A DNA stretch of 64,000 bases, from positions 192,001 through 256,000 of the forward strand of contig CBDBHR010000030.1 of the NCBI GenBank assembly GCA_965205865.1, in the 5' to 3' direction. A program made the position numbers and the translations under genes. Below are positions 2,800 to 38,486 of the stretch, piece after piece (positions within the stretch are counted from its first letter, which is position 1; every line of letters begins with the position of its first letter). The notes under the pieces were generated by a model, which did no database searches, had not been told where the DNA came from, and saw only the letters and a list, made by a program, of their open reading frames with translations. This stretch comes from a bacterium (GTDB lineage Bacteria; SAR324; NAC60-12).

Positions 2800-3903
2800 A
2801 TGGCCAAATCGGAAAAACCTGCAAACCCCAAACGAAAAGGGACGCCTCACAATGATTTTTTTATTCAACAGTGGAGTGATTTAAAAGTCGCTCAGGCTTT
2901 TTTTAAAGAGTATTTGCCCGCTTCCATTCAAGCAATCATGGACTGGTCTCAATTACGTCTGGCACCAGGCGATTTTGTGCAAAAAGCGTTGAAGAATCGT
3001 AAAAGTGATCTCCTTTATGAAACTCGTTTTAAAGGAAGCGAGGGCCAGGAAATCAAGGGATTCTTCTTGATTCATTTCGAGCATCAAAAGGAGCCGGATG
3101 AAACCATGTGCTATCGGTATTTGAGCTATTTGGTGGGGATTTATGAGCAATATTTGAAGCAATTTCCTCAAGAAGGGCTCCCGATTGTTTTTCCGATAAC
3201 ACTTTTTCAAGGTCCCAAAAAATGGACCGCCGCCCTCCACTTTCATGACTTTCTCAGTGTTCCCGAGGCCCTCAAACCCTATGTGCCTTCCTTTGAATAT
3301 CACCTGGTGGATTTATCAGGCATGAGTGATGATCAAATCAAAGGATCCTTGTTTTTGAGAGTGTTTTTAATGATCATGAAACACATCGACTCCCCAGAAC
3401 TTTCCCATCTTTTAGCCACTGTCATCTGGCCTTTGTTTGAAAAACTATTTGAAGAAGGCAGTGGTTTGAGGTATCTTGAGGATGTACTCTACTATTTATT
3501 CAAAGCCAGTTCCCACCTCAAAGAAGAGGAAATGGTGCAACAAGTGCAAAACCTGCTCAGCTTTGAAGACGCTCACGAGGTAATTATGACAATCGCCGAA
3601 CAATTGGAACAAAAAGGACTCCAAAAAGGACTCCAAAAAGGACTTCTGAAAGGTCGTCAAGAAGGTCATCAAAAAGGTCATCAAAAAGGTCGTCAAGAAG
3701 GTCGTCAAGAAGAAGCATATCATCTACTAAAAAAACAACTCCAAAAGAAGTTTGGTGAAGCCGCGGAACCTTATCAAGCCATTCTAGCGACTCTCTCTGT
3801 TGATGAACTCGAAACACTAGGAGAAAGACTCATCACTCAATCGACTTTAGAAGACATTTTTCAAGGGTTTCCCTGGAGTGGCTCTCCACCAAAGCTTTCT
3901 TAA
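2800..3903 (+). CDS. Rpn-family recombination-promoting nuclease / putative transposase (Transposase_31) with DUF4351-like C-terminus
   Basis: PHNDFF, KSDLLYET, FEHQ PD-(D/E)xK motifs, MTIAEQLEQKG followed by QKG/QEG repeats. SD AAGGAG upstream of the start. Confidence 0.9.
   Translation: MAKSEKPANPKRKGTPHNDFFIQQWSDLKVAQAFFKEYLPASIQAIMDWSQLRLAPGDFVQKALKNRKSDLLYETRFKGSEGQEIKGFFLIHFEHQKEPDETMCYRYLSYLVGIYEQYLKQFPQEGLPIVFPITLFQGPKKWTAALHFHDFLSVPEALKPYVPSFEYHLVDLSGMSDDQIKGSLFLRVFLMIMKHIDSPELSHLLATVIWPLFEKLFEEGSGLRYLEDVLYYLFKASSHLKEEEMVQQVQNLLSFEDAHEVIMTIAEQLEQKGLQKGLQKGLLKGRQEGHQKGHQKGRQEGRQEEAYHLLKKQLQKKFGEAAEPYQAILATLSVDELETLGERLITQSTLEDIFQGFPWSGSPPKLS
3586..3903 (+). CDS. Probable intragenic small Rpn product (RpnS-like antitoxin)
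   Basis: In-frame ATG of MTIAEQL preceded by SD-like GAGGT (CACGAGGTAATTATG), matching the known RpnL/RpnS arrangement. Confidence 0.6.
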   Translation: MTIAEQLEQKGLQKGLQKGLLKGRQEGHQKGHQKGRQEGRQEEAYHLLKKQLQKKFGEAAEPYQAILATLSVDELETLGERLITQSTLEDIFQGFPWSGSPPKLS

Positions 3904-4397: not shown

Positions 4398-4675
4398 AAT
4401 TAGTCCCAGTCACACTTCACAAATCCCAAGTTCTACCCCCTTATCTCATCTCGACGGGGCCGTCGGTACGCCCGGTCCGCATACGGCGCATCGGCGTACC
4501 GGAAGCAACGCGGTAGCGGCGCCCAGTCCGAGAGGGAGAGATCCTTAAGATCCCTCGTTCCCAGTTCCAAATCCCAAGTTCCAAGTTCCAGGAACAGAAC
4601 GGCAAGGGTGAATTTGGAAAATCATGGACGTCTGAGAGCGTCCTTGTTTCGTTCATTTTTTATAAGGAGAACCCT

Positions 4676-4813
4676 ATGTTGAAATCACGTAAGCAGAAAT
4701 TTGTCGCCTCCGTCGTGAGGCTGAACGTGGCAGGCGCCTTGTCTGCCACAAAAAACCGATTCGCTCAATGGCTGAGTGAATCATTATCTTCACCCTCAAT
4801 TAAAAGAGGTTAG
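4676..4813 (+). CDS. Putative 45-aa leader peptide, unit 1 (MLKSRKQKFVASVVRLNVAGALSATKNRF...)
   Basis: SD AAGGAG before ATG 4676, TAG at 4811. Paralogous to the next small ORF. Confidence 0.45.
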   Translation: MLKSRKQKFVASVVRLNVAGALSATKNRFAQWLSESLSSPSIKRG

Positions 4814-4814
4814 T

Positions 4815-4937
4815 ATGGGTATTGTGAAGAAACTTTTAGCCCCTGTCGTGGAGCTGTTCGTTGCAGACGTTGGGTCTGCCACGAAACTGCGATTCACCTC
4901 AGAGCAGGTGAATCTTTTTATAACACCTCAAATGTAA
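4815..4937 (+). CDS. Putative 40-aa leader peptide, unit 2 (MGIVKKLLAPVVELFVADVGSATKLRF...)
   Basis: SD GAGG before ATG 4815, TAA at 4935. Shares the A.VV.L.VA...SATK.RF pattern with unit 1. Confidence 0.45.
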   Translation: MGIVKKLLAPVVELFVADVGSATKLRFTSEQVNLFITPQM

Positions 4938-4946
4938 GAGGACACA

Positions 4947-6675
4947 ATGGAAAAAAGAATAATAAGAAAACTTCAATCCCGCCGTGACCGTGCAAGAGAT
5001 GGTCAAAGACCCGTCCACTGGCGAGATGGTGGAGGCACCTCGGTATGGTGGCAGAATTGTCCTCAGCGAGGCCGCCCAGCAAACGCATCCTGACGGCTGG
5101 TGGGGGTCATCGAACTCCCGAATAGCAAGTCTCGCTTTGGATAAGCTGGGCATAGGGAATTGGGCATTAGATAGGGACGTATTTGACTGGACATACCAGT
5201 TTACTGATATGGAGTTTATTAAACCCCACCTGGCGGAAAGCTGGGAGATTTCCCCGGACGGCCTCACCTATACCTTCAACATCCGAAAGGGCGTTCACTG
5301 GCAGAACAAGGCGCCGATGAACGGGCGGGAGCTAACTGCCTATGACGTCGAGCATCACTTCCACCGTTTCTATGGTCTGGGCAGCGGCTTCACCGAGCCG
5401 ACCCCCCACACGGCTTAGGTCCAAAGCTTTCCAGTAGTATCAATAACGGCGACCGACAAATGGACAGTTGTTTTTAAGCTTTCACAGCCAAGCTTAACTG
5501 CGCTGGAGGAAATAACCTATAAGAGCTACGCGACTAGCTGGATACAGCCCCCCGAAGTCATCAAGCAATATGGCGACATGAAGGATTGGAGGAACGTCGT
5601 CGGCACGGAACCCTATATGCTGACCGACCAGGTCAGGGACAGCTCTACCACCTACACCAAGAACCCTGACTACTTCGCTTTTGACGAGAAGTACCCGGAG
5701 AACCGCCTGCCCTATGCCGACGAGATAAAGTTTCTGGTAATACCGGATTTACAGACGCAACTGGCGGCACTGCGCACGGGAAAGATTGCTGCCTACACTC
5801 AGGGCCTTACCATCCCCCAATGGGAGAGCATGCAGCGGACGAACCCCGAAATCAGAATGAAACCCTTACTCGACCAGCCAATGACTGGTTATGCCTTGCA
5901 CTTGCGCGACCCGGAGTCACCCTTTACGGACATCAGGGTGCGCATAGCCATGCAGAAGGCAATAGACCGCGAGACAATTAACAGGACATGGGCTAAGGGC
6001 TTGGGAGACCCGACACCTTATGGGATTATGGGGCCGTCAATGATCGGGTACTTCACCCCATTTGAGGAGTGGCCCGAGGAGGTCAAGGAAATGTGGCGCT
6101 ATGACCCGGCAGAGGCCGAGAGGCTCCTTGATGAGGCTGGGTTTCCGCGCAGCGCCGACGGCATTAGATTCAAGACGGACGTTTATTTCAATGAATGGTA
6201 TGGGCGTATGGACCTGACACAAATAGTCACAACCTACTGGGCAGCGATTGGCGTTGATGTCGGGATTAAGATGTTAGACCTTACTGCTCACAGGGCTGCT
6301 CAGACTGGCCGCACTTATAAACATATAATCCTCTGCAATCGAGCTACGGGTTACACCGCGGCGATATGGTGGCAAGCCCATAGTGAAAGTCAATGGAACG
6401 CGCCGGGTCTGAACGATCCTGAGTACGACGCCATGGTTGACGTCGCCAATGCCGCTACCACCGTTGAGGAGTTCAAGAGGCTGGTAAAAGAAATTAATAT
6501 GTACCTCTTAAAGCAGAAAGTTTGTGTAGGGGTTGATCGTCTTCCTGTCTTTAACGTCTGGCAGCCGTGGCTGGCTGGCTACAATGGTGAAGTACGGCTG
6601 GGAACCGATCTTGGCCGAGCCGCTTATGCCCGGGTCTGGGTTGACCAGGAGCTGAAGAAGGAAATGGGGCACTAG
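4947..6675 (+). pseudogene. Peptide/nickel ABC transporter solute-binding protein (family 5), disrupted
   Basis: True start MEKRIIRKLQS at 4947 (compare MEKSKTRKMQS at 29546) is out of frame with the body, and the signal peptide is deleted. In-frame TAG at 5416-5418. Otherwise colinear with the paralogs at 27762 and 36050. Confidence 0.88.
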
Positions 6676-32606: not shown

Positions 32607-33276
32607 CCTCCGGTACAAATCCGGACATGCGCTGCTAACGCATCCGGCTCCTGCTTCGAGTCAGACGCTCAAACGTTGATTCGGATACGGGTGGGTTGTC
32701 CTTACAGAAGGAATGTGTAGTTTGAGCAGTACTTTGAAGCGTTCTTGGTGGATCCTCCGGTGCAGATCGTTAATCCGCTCCATGAGATTGATGCCATAGT
32801 CCCTCCAGGTCTCCTCGTCCACTCCCGCCGCTGAATTGCGATTGAGATCAAAGTAAGCTCTCCGCCGCCGCTTCATCGCTACTACGAACTTGTCCGACTT
32901 CCTGAAGACGTAGATATCGGGGTTATTTATTAATTTTCCCGATCCGACTACCAATGGAATGTTGACAGTCATCCTCAGGATCTCCCAGGTTCCGATCAAG
33001 AAACTTCCACACATGCGCCGGGTCTTTGACTCCGCCAGGCTCGACCGGGACTCACGCTAACGCCTTCGGTTGATGTTGCCTTCCCCACCAGACCACAAGG
33101 TCAGCGCCTGAAACTATGATTTCGGAGCTCAATACCGAGCCTATGTTCTCCCTTGTCAACGCTTAGCGCCTATCCTTGTGAATAACCACTCATGACTCGG
33201 GGACTCGGCGGGTCGTTACTGCCTTACCGAGTAAGAGACTTTCACTCTCTATTTCTTGCCAGCTTTCCTGGCGCAT
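32607..33276 (-). mobile_element. Internally deleted group II intron
   Basis: 5' ATGCGCCAG (GTGCG-like) at 33276, DI-like motifs GTGAAAGTCTCTTAC, GCGTTGACA, GTATTGAGC, GGAAGGCAACA. DV GAGCCGGATGCG-ttagcag-CGCATGTCCGGATT at 32617-32650. RT N-terminal segment (AAGVDEETWRDYG) joined to maturase C-terminus (HPYPNQRL). Confidence 0.85.
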
Positions 33277-34447: not shown

Positions 34448-35150
34448 CTATTCATACCGCACTCTCGGATCCAAATACGGATAAATCAGGTCGATCAGTA
34501 GAATGTTAAGCATCACCACGCCGGATAAAACCAGGTTTATTCCGGAGACCATCGTGTAATCTCTGCCTTCGAGTGCCATCAGAAAGAGACGACCCAGCCC
34601 CGGCAGGTTGAAGATGTTCTCTATGATAACGGAGCCACCTACCAGCAGAGGCAACTGCAGGCCAATCAGGGTAACTATCGGGATGAGGGCATTTTTGATG
34701 GTGTGCCGGATAATCACGACCCGTTCCTTGAGACCCTTGGCCCAGGCCGTCCGGATATAGTCCTGCCGGAGCACCTCCAGCATCATGGTGCGCGTCAACC
34801 GCATCGTGCCTGCAGACATGGCCGTCCCCAGAATCAGGCTGGGAATGATGAGCACCCCGAGATTCCCCAGGCGGGTCTTTTGTGAAAGTAATCAGCCGCA
34901 TCGGTGGCGACCAGCCCCACCAGAGTGCCGGGTAGATCATGACCATAATTCCCAGCCAGAAGTTCGGCGTGGCCAGGCTGATGATGGCGACCGAGCGCCC
35001 CAGGTAGTGGGCGGCGGTATCCTGGCAAATCGCCGAGTAGATACCCACCGGCAGCGCGATCACCAGCCCGATGAGGATGGCCGGGAGCCCCAGCTCAAGG
35101 GTGACTGGCAGTCTCTCTATGATCTTCTTCTCCACCGCCCAACCGCCCAT
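34448..35150 (-). pseudogene. DppB-family permease, 5'-truncated and frameshifted
   Basis: ERLPVTLELG..PNFWLG in one frame, MLEVLRQDYIRTAWAKGL..LDPRVRYE in another, shift near 34870. The N-terminal third is missing. Confidence 0.87.
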
Positions 35151-35257
35151 CTTTTCTTTTTTGAAGCGTAGTTTTGCTTAATTCCCGGGGTTCATGTAGA
35201 ATTTGAAAAATAGGGCATAATCCCTTTGTCACAGCAACGATTTTCAAAAAGGTTAGC

Positions 35258-35482
35258 ATGGAATTTACCACAACGGTTAAGGGGTTTCCCACTCAAGTCC
35301 AACTTCATCACCTTTCAGCTGATGCTGAGATACGAGTGATTGTCGAAGCAAAGCAAGCAGAGCAGAAGAGTCCGTATATTCAAATTGGGGATAAAGCGGC
35401 CTTTGAAGAATTTAAGGCAGTTGATCCTGAACCGGGGGCAAGATTGGCTTCGGATATTATCTATGAACATCGCAAACCCTAA
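35258..35482 (+). CDS. Putative antitoxin (VapB position)
   Basis: 74-aa ORF ending 1 nt before the PIN gene, C-terminal LASDIIYEHR typical of VapB tails. Confidence 0.6.
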   Translation: MEFTTTVKGFPTQVQLHHLSADAEIRVIVEAKQAEQKSPYIQIGDKAAFEEFKAVDPEPGARLASDIIYEHRKP

Positions 35483-35483
35483 G

Positions 35484-35972
35484 ATGAAGTTCTATTTCGA
35501 TACTTCTGCCCTGGTCAAGGAATTTGTCAATGAAACCGGTTCCGCTGAAGTCAAACAATATGTTGTGGAGAAGGTTCATCAAGAAGATGTCGTATTTTCT
35601 ACGGCTGTCATTACAAAAGCGGAGATTGCCGCAGCGTTGTCAGCAATGCGTCGCAATCGAGAGTTGACCCAACCAAAATTAGATGAAGCAGTAAGCAGGT
35701 TTCAGAAAAGATGGAAACTCTTCAACATTGTCAATGCGTCTCTTGCTGTTATTGAAAAATCGTATCAGATCGGGTTGCAACATAAAATTAAAGGGAGTGA
35801 TGCCTTTCAATTAGCTTCGGCTTTGATAGACGGAACGGAATTGCTGATTTCATGTGATCAAGATTTAAACGCAGCTGCAAAAAAGGAAGGGATACAGGTC
35901 TGGAATCCGATGAATGGCAGGTTTGAACCGATCAAAGAAGAGCCTGAGCCGAGCGATGACCAAGAGAGATGA
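35484..35972 (+). CDS. PIN-domain toxin, VapC family
   Basis: MKFYFDTSALVK..ETGS, AEI, DAFQLASA, SCDQDL. Confidence 0.88.
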   Translation: MKFYFDTSALVKEFVNETGSAEVKQYVVEKVHQEDVVFSTAVITKAEIAAALSAMRRNRELTQPKLDEAVSRFQKRWKLFNIVNASLAVIEKSYQIGLQHKIKGSDAFQLASALIDGTELLISCDQDLNAAAKKEGIQVWNPMNGRFEPIKEEPEPSDDQER

Positions 35973-36049: not shown

Positions 36050-37833
36050 TTAGAACCCCATTTCTTTCTTCAGATCGTGGTCAATCCACAGGTAAGGTAA
36101 AACCAAAATGGGGTAAGCATTACTGCCTCCCAATTCGGCTTCACCGTTATAACCTATGACCCACGGCTGGGTCACATTAAAACTTGGAGTTCTCGGGCCT
36201 GCTATCCACCAGTGATTCTCTATGATGTACATATCGGCCTCTTTAACCAGCCTTATCTGCTCCTCAAGAGTAGTAGCTGCGTCGACGGCTCTAACCATGG
36301 CGTCATAAACCGGATCATTGACGTTGGGGGTGTTCCAGAGATGACCCTTGGTAGGGCTGGATATTGCAGGAAAAGCGCCATAGTCGACGTTGGTGCTGTC
36401 AGTTATCAGACCTTTCATTTGATGCCCTTGTATACGAGCGTTATGAGTGGTTCGATCATTTAAACTCATCTCTACACCAATGCCAATGGCACGAAAGTAT
36501 TCCACGGCTATCTGGAAATAGTCTAAATCGAAGAACTCGTAGTGCTCATAGGTGGTCTGGAATCTAACGCCGTCGGCGCCGCGCGGATATCCAGCCTCAT
36601 CAAGCAACGCTTCTGCCGTTTCCGGGTCATACTTGTAGTATTGTTTGAGTTCTTCGGACCACTCCTCAAATGGGGTGAGATGATCGACAAGACCTAACCC
36701 TATACGCCCTGTTCGTGTCGTATCTGCCCAGCCATTGAAGTAGGTAGCGTTGATTGTCTCCCAGTCGATTGCCATCTGCAGTGCCCTCCGCACTCTGATG
36801 TCGCTCCAGGGCTCTATCTGCGTATTAAAAGTAAAAGCCGTCTCCGCTCGAAATGAAAATGGCCATACGTTCACTTCGGGGTTGGTCCGCTGGAGGCTTA
36901 CCGCCGCGTCGACTTTAATTAGCTGAGTGTTGCCCGCCCTACCGAGGTAATCAGCCTTACCCGAGCGAATTAACGCCAGATGTGTCGCTCTATCCTTCGA
37001 AACCAGGATCCTTATCTCGTCAAGATAAGGCAGGCGGTTCTCCGGGTATTTTGGGTCGTAGCGCCAGTAGTTAGGATTCTTGACATAGGTGATAGAGCTG
37101 CCCTCCACCCAGTCAGTTAGCTCAAAGGGCCCGGTGCCGACCACATTCTTCCAATCGGTAACGTCGCCATATTGTTCGACTACCTCGCGGGCCACTATAG
37201 GAGTGTTACCTCCAATGGAGATTTCCTTCAGCGATGATATGGTCGGTGACTTCAGCTTAAAAACAACCGTCCAATCGTCGCTGGCCGTTACCGATTCAAC
37301 ATTGAAGTAACCGAGCTGAATATCTATGCCGGGTTCGGTGAAGCCGCTACCCAGTCCCAATATACGCTGAAAGCTAAATTCGACATCATAAGCCGTCAAT
37401 TCTCTCCCATTCATTGGGGCCTTATTATGCCAGTGAACGCCCTTGCGGATGTGAAAGATAATAGTTTGTAGGTCGGGTTGCTCCCAGCTTTCAGCCAGCA
37501 GCCCTGTTATGAGAGAGTCAGGGATGAACGTTGTTCTAAAATTAAATACGTCCCTATCTATTGCCCAGTTCGCAGTGCCGAGCGTCTCATTAACCACCCC
37601 GATTTTGTATGGGGCCGAGCCCCGGAAATAGGGATCAATCGGGTCTCCCTCCCCTAATCCGGTGCTGACGAAGGTGAGTGTCCCGCCGTACTCTGGTGCG
37701 GTCACGAGCTTGCCAGTACTGGGGTCGGTGACATACTTGGCTGCCCAGACCTGGCCAGCCATGAAGACGCTTGCTCCCAGGATGAGAGCCAGCAGGGTTG
37801 CGCTCAATTTTGAGCTACTTTTTTGAGTATCCA
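36050..37833 (-). CDS. Peptide/nickel ABC transporter solute-binding protein (family 5), with two additional in-frame upstream starts at 37939 and 38038
   Basis: Signal peptide follows MDTQKSS. PEYGG, LAESWEQPD, GTGPF. Paralog of 27762..29546. Confidence 0.9.
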
Positions 37834-38268
37834 TCTTTTTCCTTTCGAATGGATGTTGAGAATTAAGGATTGATTTGAAACCTGCCTTCATTCCCGAAAG
37901 CAGGTTCTCGAGGATTCCTCTACTTTTTTGACGATTCATGGTGCTCCTTTCTGCTTTTTGATTAAAAACAAGATTGCGGGTTGCTTTAAAACCTGCTTTC
38001 GTTCCCGAAAGCACGTTCTTGACGATTTCTCTACACATTGTGTCTCCTTCATTTTGGAGTGATCAAAAAATCGATTCATTGGCTCCAGGATGGGGCAATG
38101 AACCCTGAGCTTTCAATCCCCATTCTCTTGAGAAATTTCCATTTGCTGAAATGAACTTTGGTGTAATTTAAGGATCTCTCCCTGAAGTCGAGATGACATA
38201 AAGGGAGACAACCCAATGAACTTGGGATTGAGGACTTGTGACTTGTTGCTTGGAACTTATTTGGGACT

Positions 38269-38352
38269 GGGAACTGGGAACTGGGAACTGGGAACTGGGA
38301 ACTGGGAACTGGGAACTGGGAACTGGGAACTGGGAACTGGGAACTGGGAACT
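38269..38352 (-). repeat. Tandem heptamer array, (CCCAGTT) on minus strand, 12 copies of GGGAACT on plus
   Basis: Read directly. Lies within a block homologous to 4200-4440. Confidence 0.97.
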
Positions 38353-38486
38353 GGTTTTTAAGTATACTCTCATAGCCACCTCATTGTCAATATTTTTTAT
38401 ACTTGAAACAGGTTAATTTCAGACTTTCATGCCATCCTGACGGTCCGCCGATGTGGCAAATCGAAGGATCGCCTTATTGCTCTTCT

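Follow-up and report, generated by a model that had tools for sequence, protein, structure and literature searches.

In-frame, multi-start leader units with GGAA-capped hairpins recur ahead of many family-5 solute-binding protein genes of a SAR324 bacterium

The gene considered here lies on the minus strand of the window, which is the whole 64,000-nucleotide stretch of DNA that was analysed. Its open reading frame starts with two leader units, continues with a signal peptide and ends with a mature solute-binding protein (SBP). The features of the locus are the following, from the 3' end of the gene to the upstream elements.

36050..38038, minus strand: open reading frame of 662 aa, with in-frame Met residues 1, 34 and 69 (from the translation)
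36050..37741, minus strand: mature family-5 solute-binding protein, 563 aa plus stop (match to PF00496)
37742..37834, minus strand: proximal start, ATG 37834-37832, followed by a Sec-type signal peptide of 31 codons with VWA at its end (read by eye)
37835..37939, minus strand: leader unit 2, 105 nt, with ATG 37939-37937, hairpin 37906-37879 and a linker ending in SD3 (37844-37840)
37940..38038, minus strand: leader unit 1, 99 nt, with ATG 38038-38036, hairpin 38017-37990 and a linker ending in SD2 (37949-37944)
37936..38079, minus strand: alternative-frame ORF of 47 codons across unit 1, whose TGA overlaps the second start as ATGA (frame scan)
38039..38104, minus strand: conserved 5' block of the cassette before the first start, with SD1 (38050-38044) and a CTCC-N8-GGAG mini-hairpin (38059-38044)
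38172..38213, minus strand: inverted repeat I7, …CATCTCGAC-TTCA-GGGAGAGATCC…, the short form of a dispersed repeat
38263..38350, minus strand: tandem heptamer array (CCCAGTT)n, repeat family D1, between the promoter-like site and the leader
38361..38390, minus strand: promoter-like TTGACA-N18-TATACT, 11/12 consensus matches, about 320 nt upstream of the first ATG

The protein belongs to the SBP_bac_5 family (PF00496): the match covers residues 178-542, with an E-value of 2e-63 and a score of 215.2 bits against a gathering cut-off of 32.4. The solved structures nearest to it are those of peptide, opine and dipeptide binders (E 8e-26 or weaker), and an NCBIfam search with this protein gave no match at its cut-off. 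The Sec signal peptide (residues 69-99) was recognised by eye from the n/h/c layout of the sequence, and its type is common to many SBP5 paralogs.

The in-frame ATG codons at 38038, 37939 and 37834 are spaced by 99 and 105 nt and are preceded by the Shine–Dalgarno (SD) sequences GAAGGAG (38050-38044), AAGGAG (37949-37944) and AAGGA (37844-37840), respectively. The first-pass annotation had described two in-frame repeats of about 100 nt ahead of the signal peptide in the 662-aa ORF, which are indeed there; the SD sequences that it quoted and its first two starts stand, while its third start, given as 37833, is one base off. The repetition also shows up as two direct repeats, D2 (62 nt, 82% identity, spacing 111) and D3 (32 nt, 78% identity, spacing 105). 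As had been claimed, each unit contains a GGAA-capped hairpin, and the two stems differ by G-U wobbles. Hairpin 1 (I2) has 12 bp (arms 38017-38006 and 38001-37990, loop 38005-38002) and a predicted folding energy of -18.0 kcal/mol (z -5.48); hairpin 2 (I3), also of 12 bp (arms 37906-37895 and 37890-37879, loop 37894-37891), folds at -18.3 kcal/mol (z -4.45), and in both cases none of the 200 shuffles was as stable. The folding z-score of the whole leader is -4.35. The loops, C-GGAA-G in unit 1 and G-GGAA-U in unit 2, are GNRA tetraloops as well, in agreement with the earlier remark; across units, they are mostly GGAA, GGGA or GAAA, with a minority of GGAG, GGUA or GGCA. The CTCC-N8-GGAG motif reported at the first SD is present, and the matching anti-SD geometry reported elsewhere in the window was found as CCTC-N8-GAGG near positions 4793 and 4926. 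However, the mini-hairpin at the first SD is weak (-4.9 kcal/mol, z -2.45, 5 of 200 shuffles as stable), and CTCC occurs in just 17 of 29 first-start units, the other 12 having CTTG.

Upstream of the leader, the promoter-like site is one of four in the region, against 1.2 ± 1.0 in shuffles, a count that reflects consensus matches only. Arrays of at least five copies of the heptamer CCCAGTT occur 19 times in the genome. The flanks of the CATCTCGAC-TTCA-GGGAGAGATCC repeat recur with inserts of 4, 19, 38 and 78-84 nt, and the long form of this dispersed repeat lies at 4440-4545 of the window. Contigs from metatranscriptome libraries match the SBP5 gene body and the segment 37990-38101 exactly, which is a weak sign of expression; these RNA runs consist of contigs only, which show neither level nor ends and are broken at repeats, and the parts that they leave uncovered carry no meaning. 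A search of the window with Rfam 15 gave a single match, a group II intron at 33020-33242; a further search hit nothing but the model of a mammalian lncRNA, on the other strand (21.9 bits for a cut-off of 60), and there was no hit at locus 1. Regarding the alternative 47-codon frame, a 14-nt deletion in two paralogs fuses it to the SBP frame.

The repeated unit, referred to as unit A, is found 66 times in the genome by nhmmer and in 52 blastn clusters. It consists, in this order, of an SD-ATG, 7-11 codons, a 12-bp GGAA-capped hairpin and an A/U-rich linker with the next SD-ATG at its end; it is about 100-111 nt long, and one to three units stand in frame directly before the Sec signal peptide of an SBP5. 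The genome contains 109-119 SBP5 paralogs (median identity 47% to the present protein), and the sister genome G001 gives 113 SBP5 matches. About 45 of the 109-119 paralogs are fronted by unit A, with one or two units per gene here and up to three in the sister species. An SBP5 start lies within 800 nt downstream of 57 of 63 A units; some of the remaining six belong to SBP5 loci that are broken or divergent, and one of them, a partial unit, precedes a secreted M16-like peptidase. Unit A is itself one among several families of modules found at the head of nearly every paralog; the other families also have tandem in-frame SD-ATG starts, and some of them have hairpins. The recurrence of unit A and the similar designs in other families bear out the proposal of a general modular leader. 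What had been regarded as the leader of one locus is instead a cassette shared by, and recombining among, more than 100 paralogs.

Within the family, the unit was found in 3 of the 45 genomes searched. A pattern scan of metagenomes matched 31 stretches, one of which (L059) has the unit with its hairpin, and two further weak profile hits are without hairpin. The first-pass annotation had asked whether homologous SBP loci lack the hairpin: it is kept in the paralogs, in the sister species, in one genome of another genus and in one metagenome contig. Recoding was considered for the TGA codons of four paralogs and rejected, three of these codons being ordinary earlier stops and the fourth a CGA-to-TGA nonsense change. 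Nothing relevant was found in the literature on solute-binding-protein paralogs of sponge symbionts or Deltaproteobacteria.

The leader DNA is about 82-96% identical in full-length matches, in most of which the similarity begins at 38104 (query position 97). The downstream frame matches the mature protein in 37 of the 52 clusters, at 41-63% identity in 35 of them and at 36% and 25% in the other two. Together with the signal peptide and the first few codons of the mature part, the leader makes up a mosaic cassette that is exchanged among paralogs by recombination or gene conversion, which accounts for a leader DNA identity of about 90% beside mature parts that are mostly 41-63% identical. In nine G001/G000 pairs, whose mature proteins are 79-97.5% identical, the leader architecture differs in most, with homology breakpoints from -46 to -1111. 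The last 100 nt before the mature start are only 64-79% identical in 6 of 7 ortholog pairs, compared to 92-98% for the mature DNA; leader and signal peptide differ in these 6 pairs, so the cassettes recombine fast. Variants of the 5' and 3' units are found in every combination. As a mark of concerted evolution, alleles specific to one species were looked for and discarded: there are no strong frequency differences between G000 and G001 (the nearest neighbour of a unit is in its own genome in 13 cases and in the other in 17, with 2 ties), a comparison that is uninformative because the mature-gene DNA differs by just about 2-8%. Genes for YhgA-like (Rpn) nucleases were also dismissed as drivers of the recombination: of the 10 matches, three are near SBP loci by coordinates, which is not clearly above chance (the SBP gene density is about one every 43 kb).

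Although unit A is unconstrained at the peptide level, its phase is maintained and it remains free of stops. The diversity at the three codon positions of the unit core is flat (0.131, 0.139 and 0.131 in 61 units), compared to 0.242, 0.185 and 0.50 in the first 20 mature codons of unit-A loci. Upstream of the proximal ATG, the open stretch has a median of 60 codons in the SBP frame versus 7 and 13 in the others, and the SBP frame is the longest open one in 76 of 97 loci. Leaders contain 241 ATGs in the SBP frame, 60% of which have an SD, and 114 out-of-frame ATGs, of which 12% do. Among the A units, 46 of 63 are in phase and open to the SBP, 10 are out of phase and one bears a stop, in counts of events that are not independent because the units share ancestry; across unit 1, two frames out of three are open, so that a single open unit counts for little as evidence. 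Where module families adjoin, some junctions are of the stop-restart type instead of being fused.

The most conserved part of unit A is the 5' arm of the hairpin, with a pi of 0.064 versus 0.14-0.17 elsewhere. When pairs are counted on a hand-defined stem, 89.3% of the cells are paired in 89 distinct units, versus 26-52% with slid partners. The commonest stem changes preserve the pairing as sense-strand G-U (GC to GU 30 times, UA to UG 11 times). Most stem pairs never vary, which leaves little covariation power, and RNAalifold returned no structure for the A-unit alignment. There is one CG-to-GC double change, found in 2 units and again in L059. Pair-breaking variants are common (CG to CC 10 times; 40 breaking versus 52 preserving cells). 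In family-B modules there are three hairpins, in which five pairs show double-sided changes while the encoded peptide varies. The idea that the hairpin insulates the SD was tried and rejected: in local folding, the unpaired probability of the 12 nt before the starts is no different from background (medians 0.018 and 0.016 versus 0.009, mean 0.033 versus 0.044), which leaves an insulator role without computational support.

We propose, with a probability of roughly 0.5, that the SBP5 genes share a standardised leader that recombines and is translated from several starts, and that its hairpin acts as RNA. In this mechanism, ribosomes would load at any of the tandem SD-AUGs, and every product would have the same cleavable signal peptide, so that the variable extension would be discarded on export. 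The hairpin would be a cis RNA element (a stabiliser, a pause or a spacer), possibly a protein-binding site, rather than coding sequence.

Other explanations have to be weighed against this one. It may be that the units have no function, since frequent gene conversion alone could suffice to make them uniform: they would simply result from unequal crossing-over and gene conversion among the interchangeable 5' ends of a huge family of paralogs, the palindrome would be a passenger or a selfish repeat, and the frames would be open only because the templates copied by conversion are intact and severely disruptive variants are eliminated. The fast exchange of leaders, the mosaic units in one to three copies, the flat codon-position diversity, the absence of an SD-accessibility signal and the presence of the unit in just 3 of 45 searched genomes of the family are all in line with this explanation, and palindromic repeats that lie in frame have been described in other bacteria, as the Rickettsia palindromic elements (PMC10969869). 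We nevertheless find it somewhat unlikely, considering that the stem changes favour sense-strand G-U and include a CG-to-GC double change, that family-B hairpins covary, that the bias of ATGs and SDs to the SBP frame is strong across several unrelated module families, and that the 5' arm is conserved above its flanks. Alternatively, the fact that most paralogs have long stop-free in-frame extensions may mean that the extension has a function of its own, as an N-terminal pro-peptide or as part of a longer signal peptide (a segment for cytoplasmic targeting or chaperone docking, for example); in some family-B loci the sole ATG is about 25 codons before the hydrophobic core, so that part of the module must be translated. 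This is very unlikely as an explanation of the leader: third-position variation is not in excess, there is free variation in the residue that follows the loop Gly (T, M, I, E, P, A, V or K), first units with a frameshift are tolerated, and the 68-aa extension (residues 1-68) matches no Pfam family at E 0.01 or better, including the model of the extended signal peptide region (ESPR) of type V secretion. One could also see in the 12-bp palindrome, a near-perfect inverted repeat with a 4-bp spacer, in tandem, a DNA operator at which a dimeric transcription factor would act as a roadblock on all SBP genes. This is hardly credible, because the palindromes are about 350 to 460 nt downstream of the sole promoter-like site, and the commonest variants of the 3' arm (C to T, A to G) break the DNA symmetry while they keep the RNA pairing.

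A more specific proposal, which takes up the CsrA/RsmA idea of the first-pass annotation, is that a CsrA dimer would bridge the GGA of the loop and that of a neighbouring SD, and so repress or tune translation throughout the SBP regulon. Between the loop GGA and the GGA of SD1 upstream there are 42 nt, and 58 nt to that of SD2 downstream; these distances are within the reported range of CsrA bridging. A search of the genome for csrA, which the first-pass annotation had suggested, gave a single copy, coding for a 79-aa CsrA (92 bits); FliW was not found in this 92%-complete genome, and CsrA therefore need not be tied to flagellar control. GGA is within the loop window in 84 of 92 distinct units, and CsrA recognises hairpin loops that contain GGA (PMC13443453 and PMC4894983). 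Against this proposal, the loop varies more than the 5' arm (pi 0.153 versus 0.064), its GGA is missing in 8 of the 92 units, and GGA is mildly enriched (191 observed versus 141.5 expected); a related candidate, a GGA 'sponge', was rejected because this enrichment is just 1.35-fold. No GGA is visible in the loops of family-B hairpins (read by eye, uncounted, in the locus-1 and family-B sequences), so that CsrA would not explain the general design. Besides, GGAA is itself a stable GNRA tetraloop, and a small element nested in the B modules has GAAA as its cap, an indication that stability is selected for, not GGA. Altogether, a role of CsrA appears doubtful.

Solute-binding proteins are usually among the most abundant proteins in nutrient-scavenging bacteria, and more than 100 genes in the genome of this sponge-associated bacterium are devoted to a single SBP subfamily. 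If the multi-start leader operates as we propose, this shared, movable, in-frame element is a natural 'standard expression part' and a clean case of concerted evolution limited to the exchangeable 5' ends within a gene family. It makes it possible to test whether tandem in-frame SD-AUGs raise yield, whether an extension of 70-130 residues is tolerated before a Sec signal peptide, and what a hairpin of -18 kcal/mol does 20 nt into each reading frame. It is also a warning for annotation: the start-codon calls and the predicted N-termini of the SBP5 family are probably inconsistent. One could go further and imagine the leader cassettes as a recombinational switchboard, in which more than 100 SBP genes would exchange promoter, leader and signal-peptide units via the shared hairpin-bearing start modules and the promoter-proximal repeats. 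We consider this quite unlikely; if it were true, the symbiont population would hold many expression settings of its nutrient-uptake repertoire, and expression level, not antigen sequence, would be shuffled on a natural multi-start translation amplifier.

Like the SBP5 proteins described here, the Erp/Elp proteins of Borrelia are a multi-copy family of exported proteins. Akins et al. reportedly described in 1999 that the upstream region and leader peptide are nearly identical among Erp/Elp paralogs with different mature parts, and attributed this to recombination. The SBP5 family is likewise a family of paralogs with a conserved leader and exchange. However, the SBPs are periplasmic and chromosomal, whereas Erp/Elp are lipoproteins encoded on prophage plasmids; there is no lipobox Cys at position +1 of the SBP5 signal peptides, which end in VWA/A or AVA/AE. 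We know of no report of tandem in-frame SD-ATG modules with RNA hairpins for Erp/Elp. The name 'OspE/F-like leader peptide' and the structure of the Erp/Elp family are given in PMC12242104. The Rickettsia palindromic elements and other in-frame MITEs resemble unit A in being in-frame palindromic repeats; the former are repeats of about 100-150 bp inside ORFs, whose added peptide is tolerated (PMC10969869). They are scattered in unrelated genes, whereas unit A is confined to SBP5 5' ends, with 57 of 63 units upstream of an SBP5 start and no dispersal into unrelated genes like that of these MITEs, and each unit A brings its own SD-ATG. Leaders bound by CsrA/RsmA have in common with unit A, as far as can be told from its sequence, a GGA in the loop and another in the SD, and csrA is in the genome; they differ in that the GGA of unit A is in a 4-nt GNRA loop and that the other module families, as read, are without this feature. 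Last, in synthetic bicistronic or tandem-RBS designs, ribosomes from an upstream SD-ATG run into the downstream start, and initiation depends less on the coding sequence that follows. By analogy, such a property would suit a leader that serves more than 100 different genes, with the difference that the upstream starts are here mostly fused in frame, some junctions being of the stop-restart type.

The gene of the second solute-binding protein (SBP) opens with an in-frame leader ahead of its signal peptide. The features of the leader and its surroundings are the following (SD, Shine-Dalgarno):

36050..38038, minus strand: SBP ORF, 662 aa, with in-frame Met at residues 1, 34 and 69
38038, 37939 and 37834, minus strand: three in-frame ATGs, from sequence and translation
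38050-38044, minus strand: SD1, GAAGGAG, preceding ATG 38038
37949-37944, minus strand: SD2, AAGGAG, preceding ATG 37939
37844-37840, minus strand: SD3, AAGGA, preceding ATG 37834
38038-37940 (99 nt) and 37939-37835 (105 nt), minus strand: direct repeats with a common core of 62 nt, 82% identity
35340-35969, opposite strand: PIN-domain ORF between the SBP and an OppC-like permease
33020-33242, minus strand: match to a group II intron (D1-D4; 154 bits), immediately past the OppC-like permease on its downstream side

The first-pass annotation had described three in-frame starts, each with an SD, two repeats of about 100 nt ahead of the signal peptide and a GGAA-loop hairpin in each repeat. This observation is confirmed, except that the proximal start, given as 37833, lies one base off, at 37834. 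A 12-bp inverted repeat surrounds GGAA in each repeat, and the RNA folds at -18.0 (z -5.5) and -18.3 kcal/mol (z -4.5). The anti-SD pairing proposed at the first SD (CTCC-N8-GGAG) is present, but it is weak (-4.9 kcal/mol) and conserved only in part. By eye, residues 69-99 resemble a Sec signal peptide ending in VWA; the remainder of the ORF is a family-5 solute-binding protein (SBP5; PF00496, E 2e-63), only distantly related to solved peptide and opine binders, and an NCBIfam search with the SBP gave no match at or above the cut-off. A 47-codon ORF in another frame spans the first repeat (37936-38079, minus strand), and its TGA overlaps the second start (ATGA). Such a stop/start overlap is a classic coupling arrangement. 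In two paralogs, a 14-nt deletion of the 5' arm joins the frame of this ORF to that of the SBP.

The module, hereafter unit A, had been taken as a feature of a single locus, which it is not: a profile search of the genome returns 66 copies. A search of the 4.74-Mb genome with the 278-nt leader stretch gives 49 matches, 42 with E < 1e-19; the full-length matches have 82-96% DNA identity. The copies group in 52 blastn clusters, in 37 of which the downstream frame matches the mature SBP (35 at 41-63% identity, the other two at 36% and 25%); the SBP has 109-119 paralogs in the genome, with a median identity of 47%. In the sister species G001, a single contig of 4.3 Mb, the mature protein is matched 113 times, and the same units occur in tandem runs of up to three. 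Unit A is present in 3 of the 45 family genomes searched, namely this one, G001 and G023, which belongs to another genus (89% completeness, 5% contamination), and the SBP subfamily in 3 of 32 genomes with a completeness of 85% or more. When the leader peptide was used to scan the GTDB representative genomes, 18 loci came up, 16 of them in OZ242383.1; the other two are in a MAG labelled Deltaproteobacteria, where the match is limited to the signal peptide. Labels of sequencing runs suggest that the organism is sponge-associated.

A metagenome contig (L059, locus 347-841) has a full unit A placed in frame ahead of another kind of SBP, whose SBP_bac_1/8 matches are weak and below cut-off because the locus is truncated. 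At about 1190396 (minus strand) of contig C30 of this genome, a partial unit A and an SBP-type signal peptide precede a secreted M16-like peptidase, whose HxxEH was seen by eye. On account of these two genes, the cassette is not strictly tied to SBP5.

Inspection of the upstream in-frame region of each paralog showed that nearly all have a long open extension, assembled from recurring modules: unit A, family B and at least three further families. The idea of a general modular leader design therefore holds. Family B, with 105 profile matches, is the type found at the first SBP locus of the window (4677-4947). Unit A is itself a mosaic: its conserved hairpin core is flanked by one of three or four 5' variants and one of three 3' variants, in free combination. 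Some B modules contain, nested in their second hairpin, an element of about 50 nt, or less in certain copies, that has a GC-rich hairpin capped by GAAA; it keeps the frame and adds about 17 residues (for example at C23:117545, C29:532701 and C30:126427 of this genome). Some junctions between families are not fused but stop and restart (ATG-TAA, then SD, then ATG), as at the first locus, which fits a hand-on of ribosomes from upstream modules.

Is it the peptide or the RNA that is conserved? Diversity in the unit core is flat across codon positions (0.131, 0.139 and 0.131 for 61 units), and the amino-acid sequence of the unit is therefore not the conserved thing; the first 20 mature codons of the same loci have a coding pattern (0.242, 0.185, 0.50). 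The codon after the loop Gly may be T, M, I, E, P, A, V or K. Within the unit, conservation is highest in the 5' arm (pi 0.064). In a set of 89 distinct units without gaps, drawn from three genomes, pairing holds in 89.3% of stem cells, versus 26-52% when partners are slid by 1-3 columns. The commonest stem changes keep pairing on the sense RNA only (GC to GU 30 times, UA to UG 11 times), and a CG-to-GC double change occurs at one stem pair in two units and in a metagenome unit. On the other hand, 40 cells break pairing versus 52 that keep it, the former including a common ATC variant (CG to CC, 10 times), and most pairs never vary. Support for an RNA-level hairpin in unit A is moderate, not decisive. 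Family B has more power for this test: RNAalifold on 37 distinct units gives three stems, with double-sided changes at five stem pairs (one being CG 19, UA 6, UG 4), and the peptide over the third hairpin varies freely among copies. No Rfam family matches the second SBP leader or that of the first locus.

In nine ortholog pairs between G001 and this genome (mature protein identity 79-97.5%), the leader architecture is mostly different. In the pair at 97.0%, two A units in G001 stand against a B remnant, two C units, one A unit and a different signal peptide in this genome; in the pair at 97.5%, B modules in G001 face C plus A modules here. Relative to the mature start, homology begins at -46, -88, -167, -184, -203, -511, -552, -1061 and -1111. 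For seven pairs, identity is 92-98% over the mature DNA (89-97% at third codon positions), whereas over the last 100 nt upstream of the mature start it is only 64-79% in six and 98% in one; since the two species separated, paralogous copies have therefore taken the place of leader and signal peptide. Such recombination or gene conversion accounts for the uniformity of the units, whatever they do. Of 10 matches in the genome to YhgA-like genes (Transposase_31/Rpn-type nuclease), one adjoins the first SBP locus (window 2800-3900) and one a broken A-unit leader near C29:405.7 kb (gene at C29:405886-406470); that they are linked to leader recombination is speculative.

Among 97 loci with a recognisable proximal ATG, that of the signal peptide, the median open stretch upstream is 60 codons in the SBP frame, versus 7 and 13 in the other frames, and the SBP frame is the longest in 76; the extensions contain 241 in-frame ATGs, 60% with an SD motif, versus 38 and 76 in the other two frames, 12% with an SD, and 80 loci have at least one upstream in-frame SD-ATG, these counts not being independent events since the modules are of common ancestry. 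The 63 A units divide into 46 that run in phase and uninterrupted into the SBP, 10 that are out of phase, 1 interrupted by a stop and 6 for which no SBP5 start lies within 800 nt; as a caveat on openness, the first unit is open in two of three frames regardless. Unit A is kept translatable despite its unconstrained peptide.

We favor, with a probability of about 0.5, a standardised, recombining multi-start leader whose extension is discarded on export. Ribosomes would be able to start at any of several in-frame SD-AUGs, and the extension would be lost because all products would carry the same cleavable signal peptide, which would account for phase and openness being under selection when the peptide is not. 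As for the hairpin, it would be a cis RNA element, with stability, pausing or spacing, or a protein site as candidate roles; its predicted effect on SD accessibility is nil. A serious rival is that the units are a neutral by-product: the rate of leader exchange counts for it. It is also possible that CsrA acts on the hairpin leader, as first proposed: csrA is present in the genome, FliW was looked for and not found, and most unit-A loops contain GGA, but, judging from the family-B sequences that were read, the idea does not carry over to that family. The initial interpretation thus receives partial support: the design is modular as proposed, a role for CsrA is unproven and conservation of the anti-SD is incomplete.

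Some 320 nt ahead of the first ATG, at 38390-38361, there is a strong promoter-like site, separated from the leader by a dispersed inverted-repeat element and a (CCCAGTT)n array. The heptamer array (38263-38350), whose changes in copy number could alter the length of the 5'-UTR, belongs to a genome-wide set of 29 heptamer arrays of at least five copies, 19 of which have the CCCAGTT unit. The dispersed element has fixed flanks (…CATCTCGAC … GGGAGAGATCC…) and occurs genome-wide, in the window at 4440-4545 and 38172-38213; its inner parts are of 4, 19, 38 or 78-84 nt, the long ones GC-rich and structured in appearance, and an Rfam search gave no match. In RNA libraries of two studies, contigs agree with the gene body and with 37990-38101 to within 0-1 differences; they give no level, strand or ends, and the libraries may contain DNA, so that they say only that nothing obvious keeps the leader out of transcripts.

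A 214-aa ORF with no Pfam match also lies between the SBP and the permease (region 34509-35969), and the operon may be disrupted. The first SBP locus (4677-6675) looks decayed: its family-B leader ends in stop-restart junctions, the hydrophobic core of the signal peptide is missing, with only 9 open in-frame codons before the mature start, and the gene is split (ORFs 4984-5418 and 5578-6675). In the SBP5 paralog at C30:86428-88098, the CGA codon of an Arg that is conserved elsewhere has become TGA, a nonsense change that probably makes the gene a pseudogene; in three other paralogs with apparent internal TGAs, these are earlier natural stops.

A limited literature search found no description of tandem in-frame SD-ATG hairpin modules common to an SBP family. 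The Borrelia Erp/Elp family is reportedly accounted for by recombination (Akins, in 1999). These paralogs with conserved leaders, whose name and family are given in PMC12242104, are the nearest evolutionary analogue. The nearest structural analogue is provided by in-frame palindromic repeats such as RPEs, as described in PMC10969869; unlike RPEs, unit A is not dispersed among unrelated genes.
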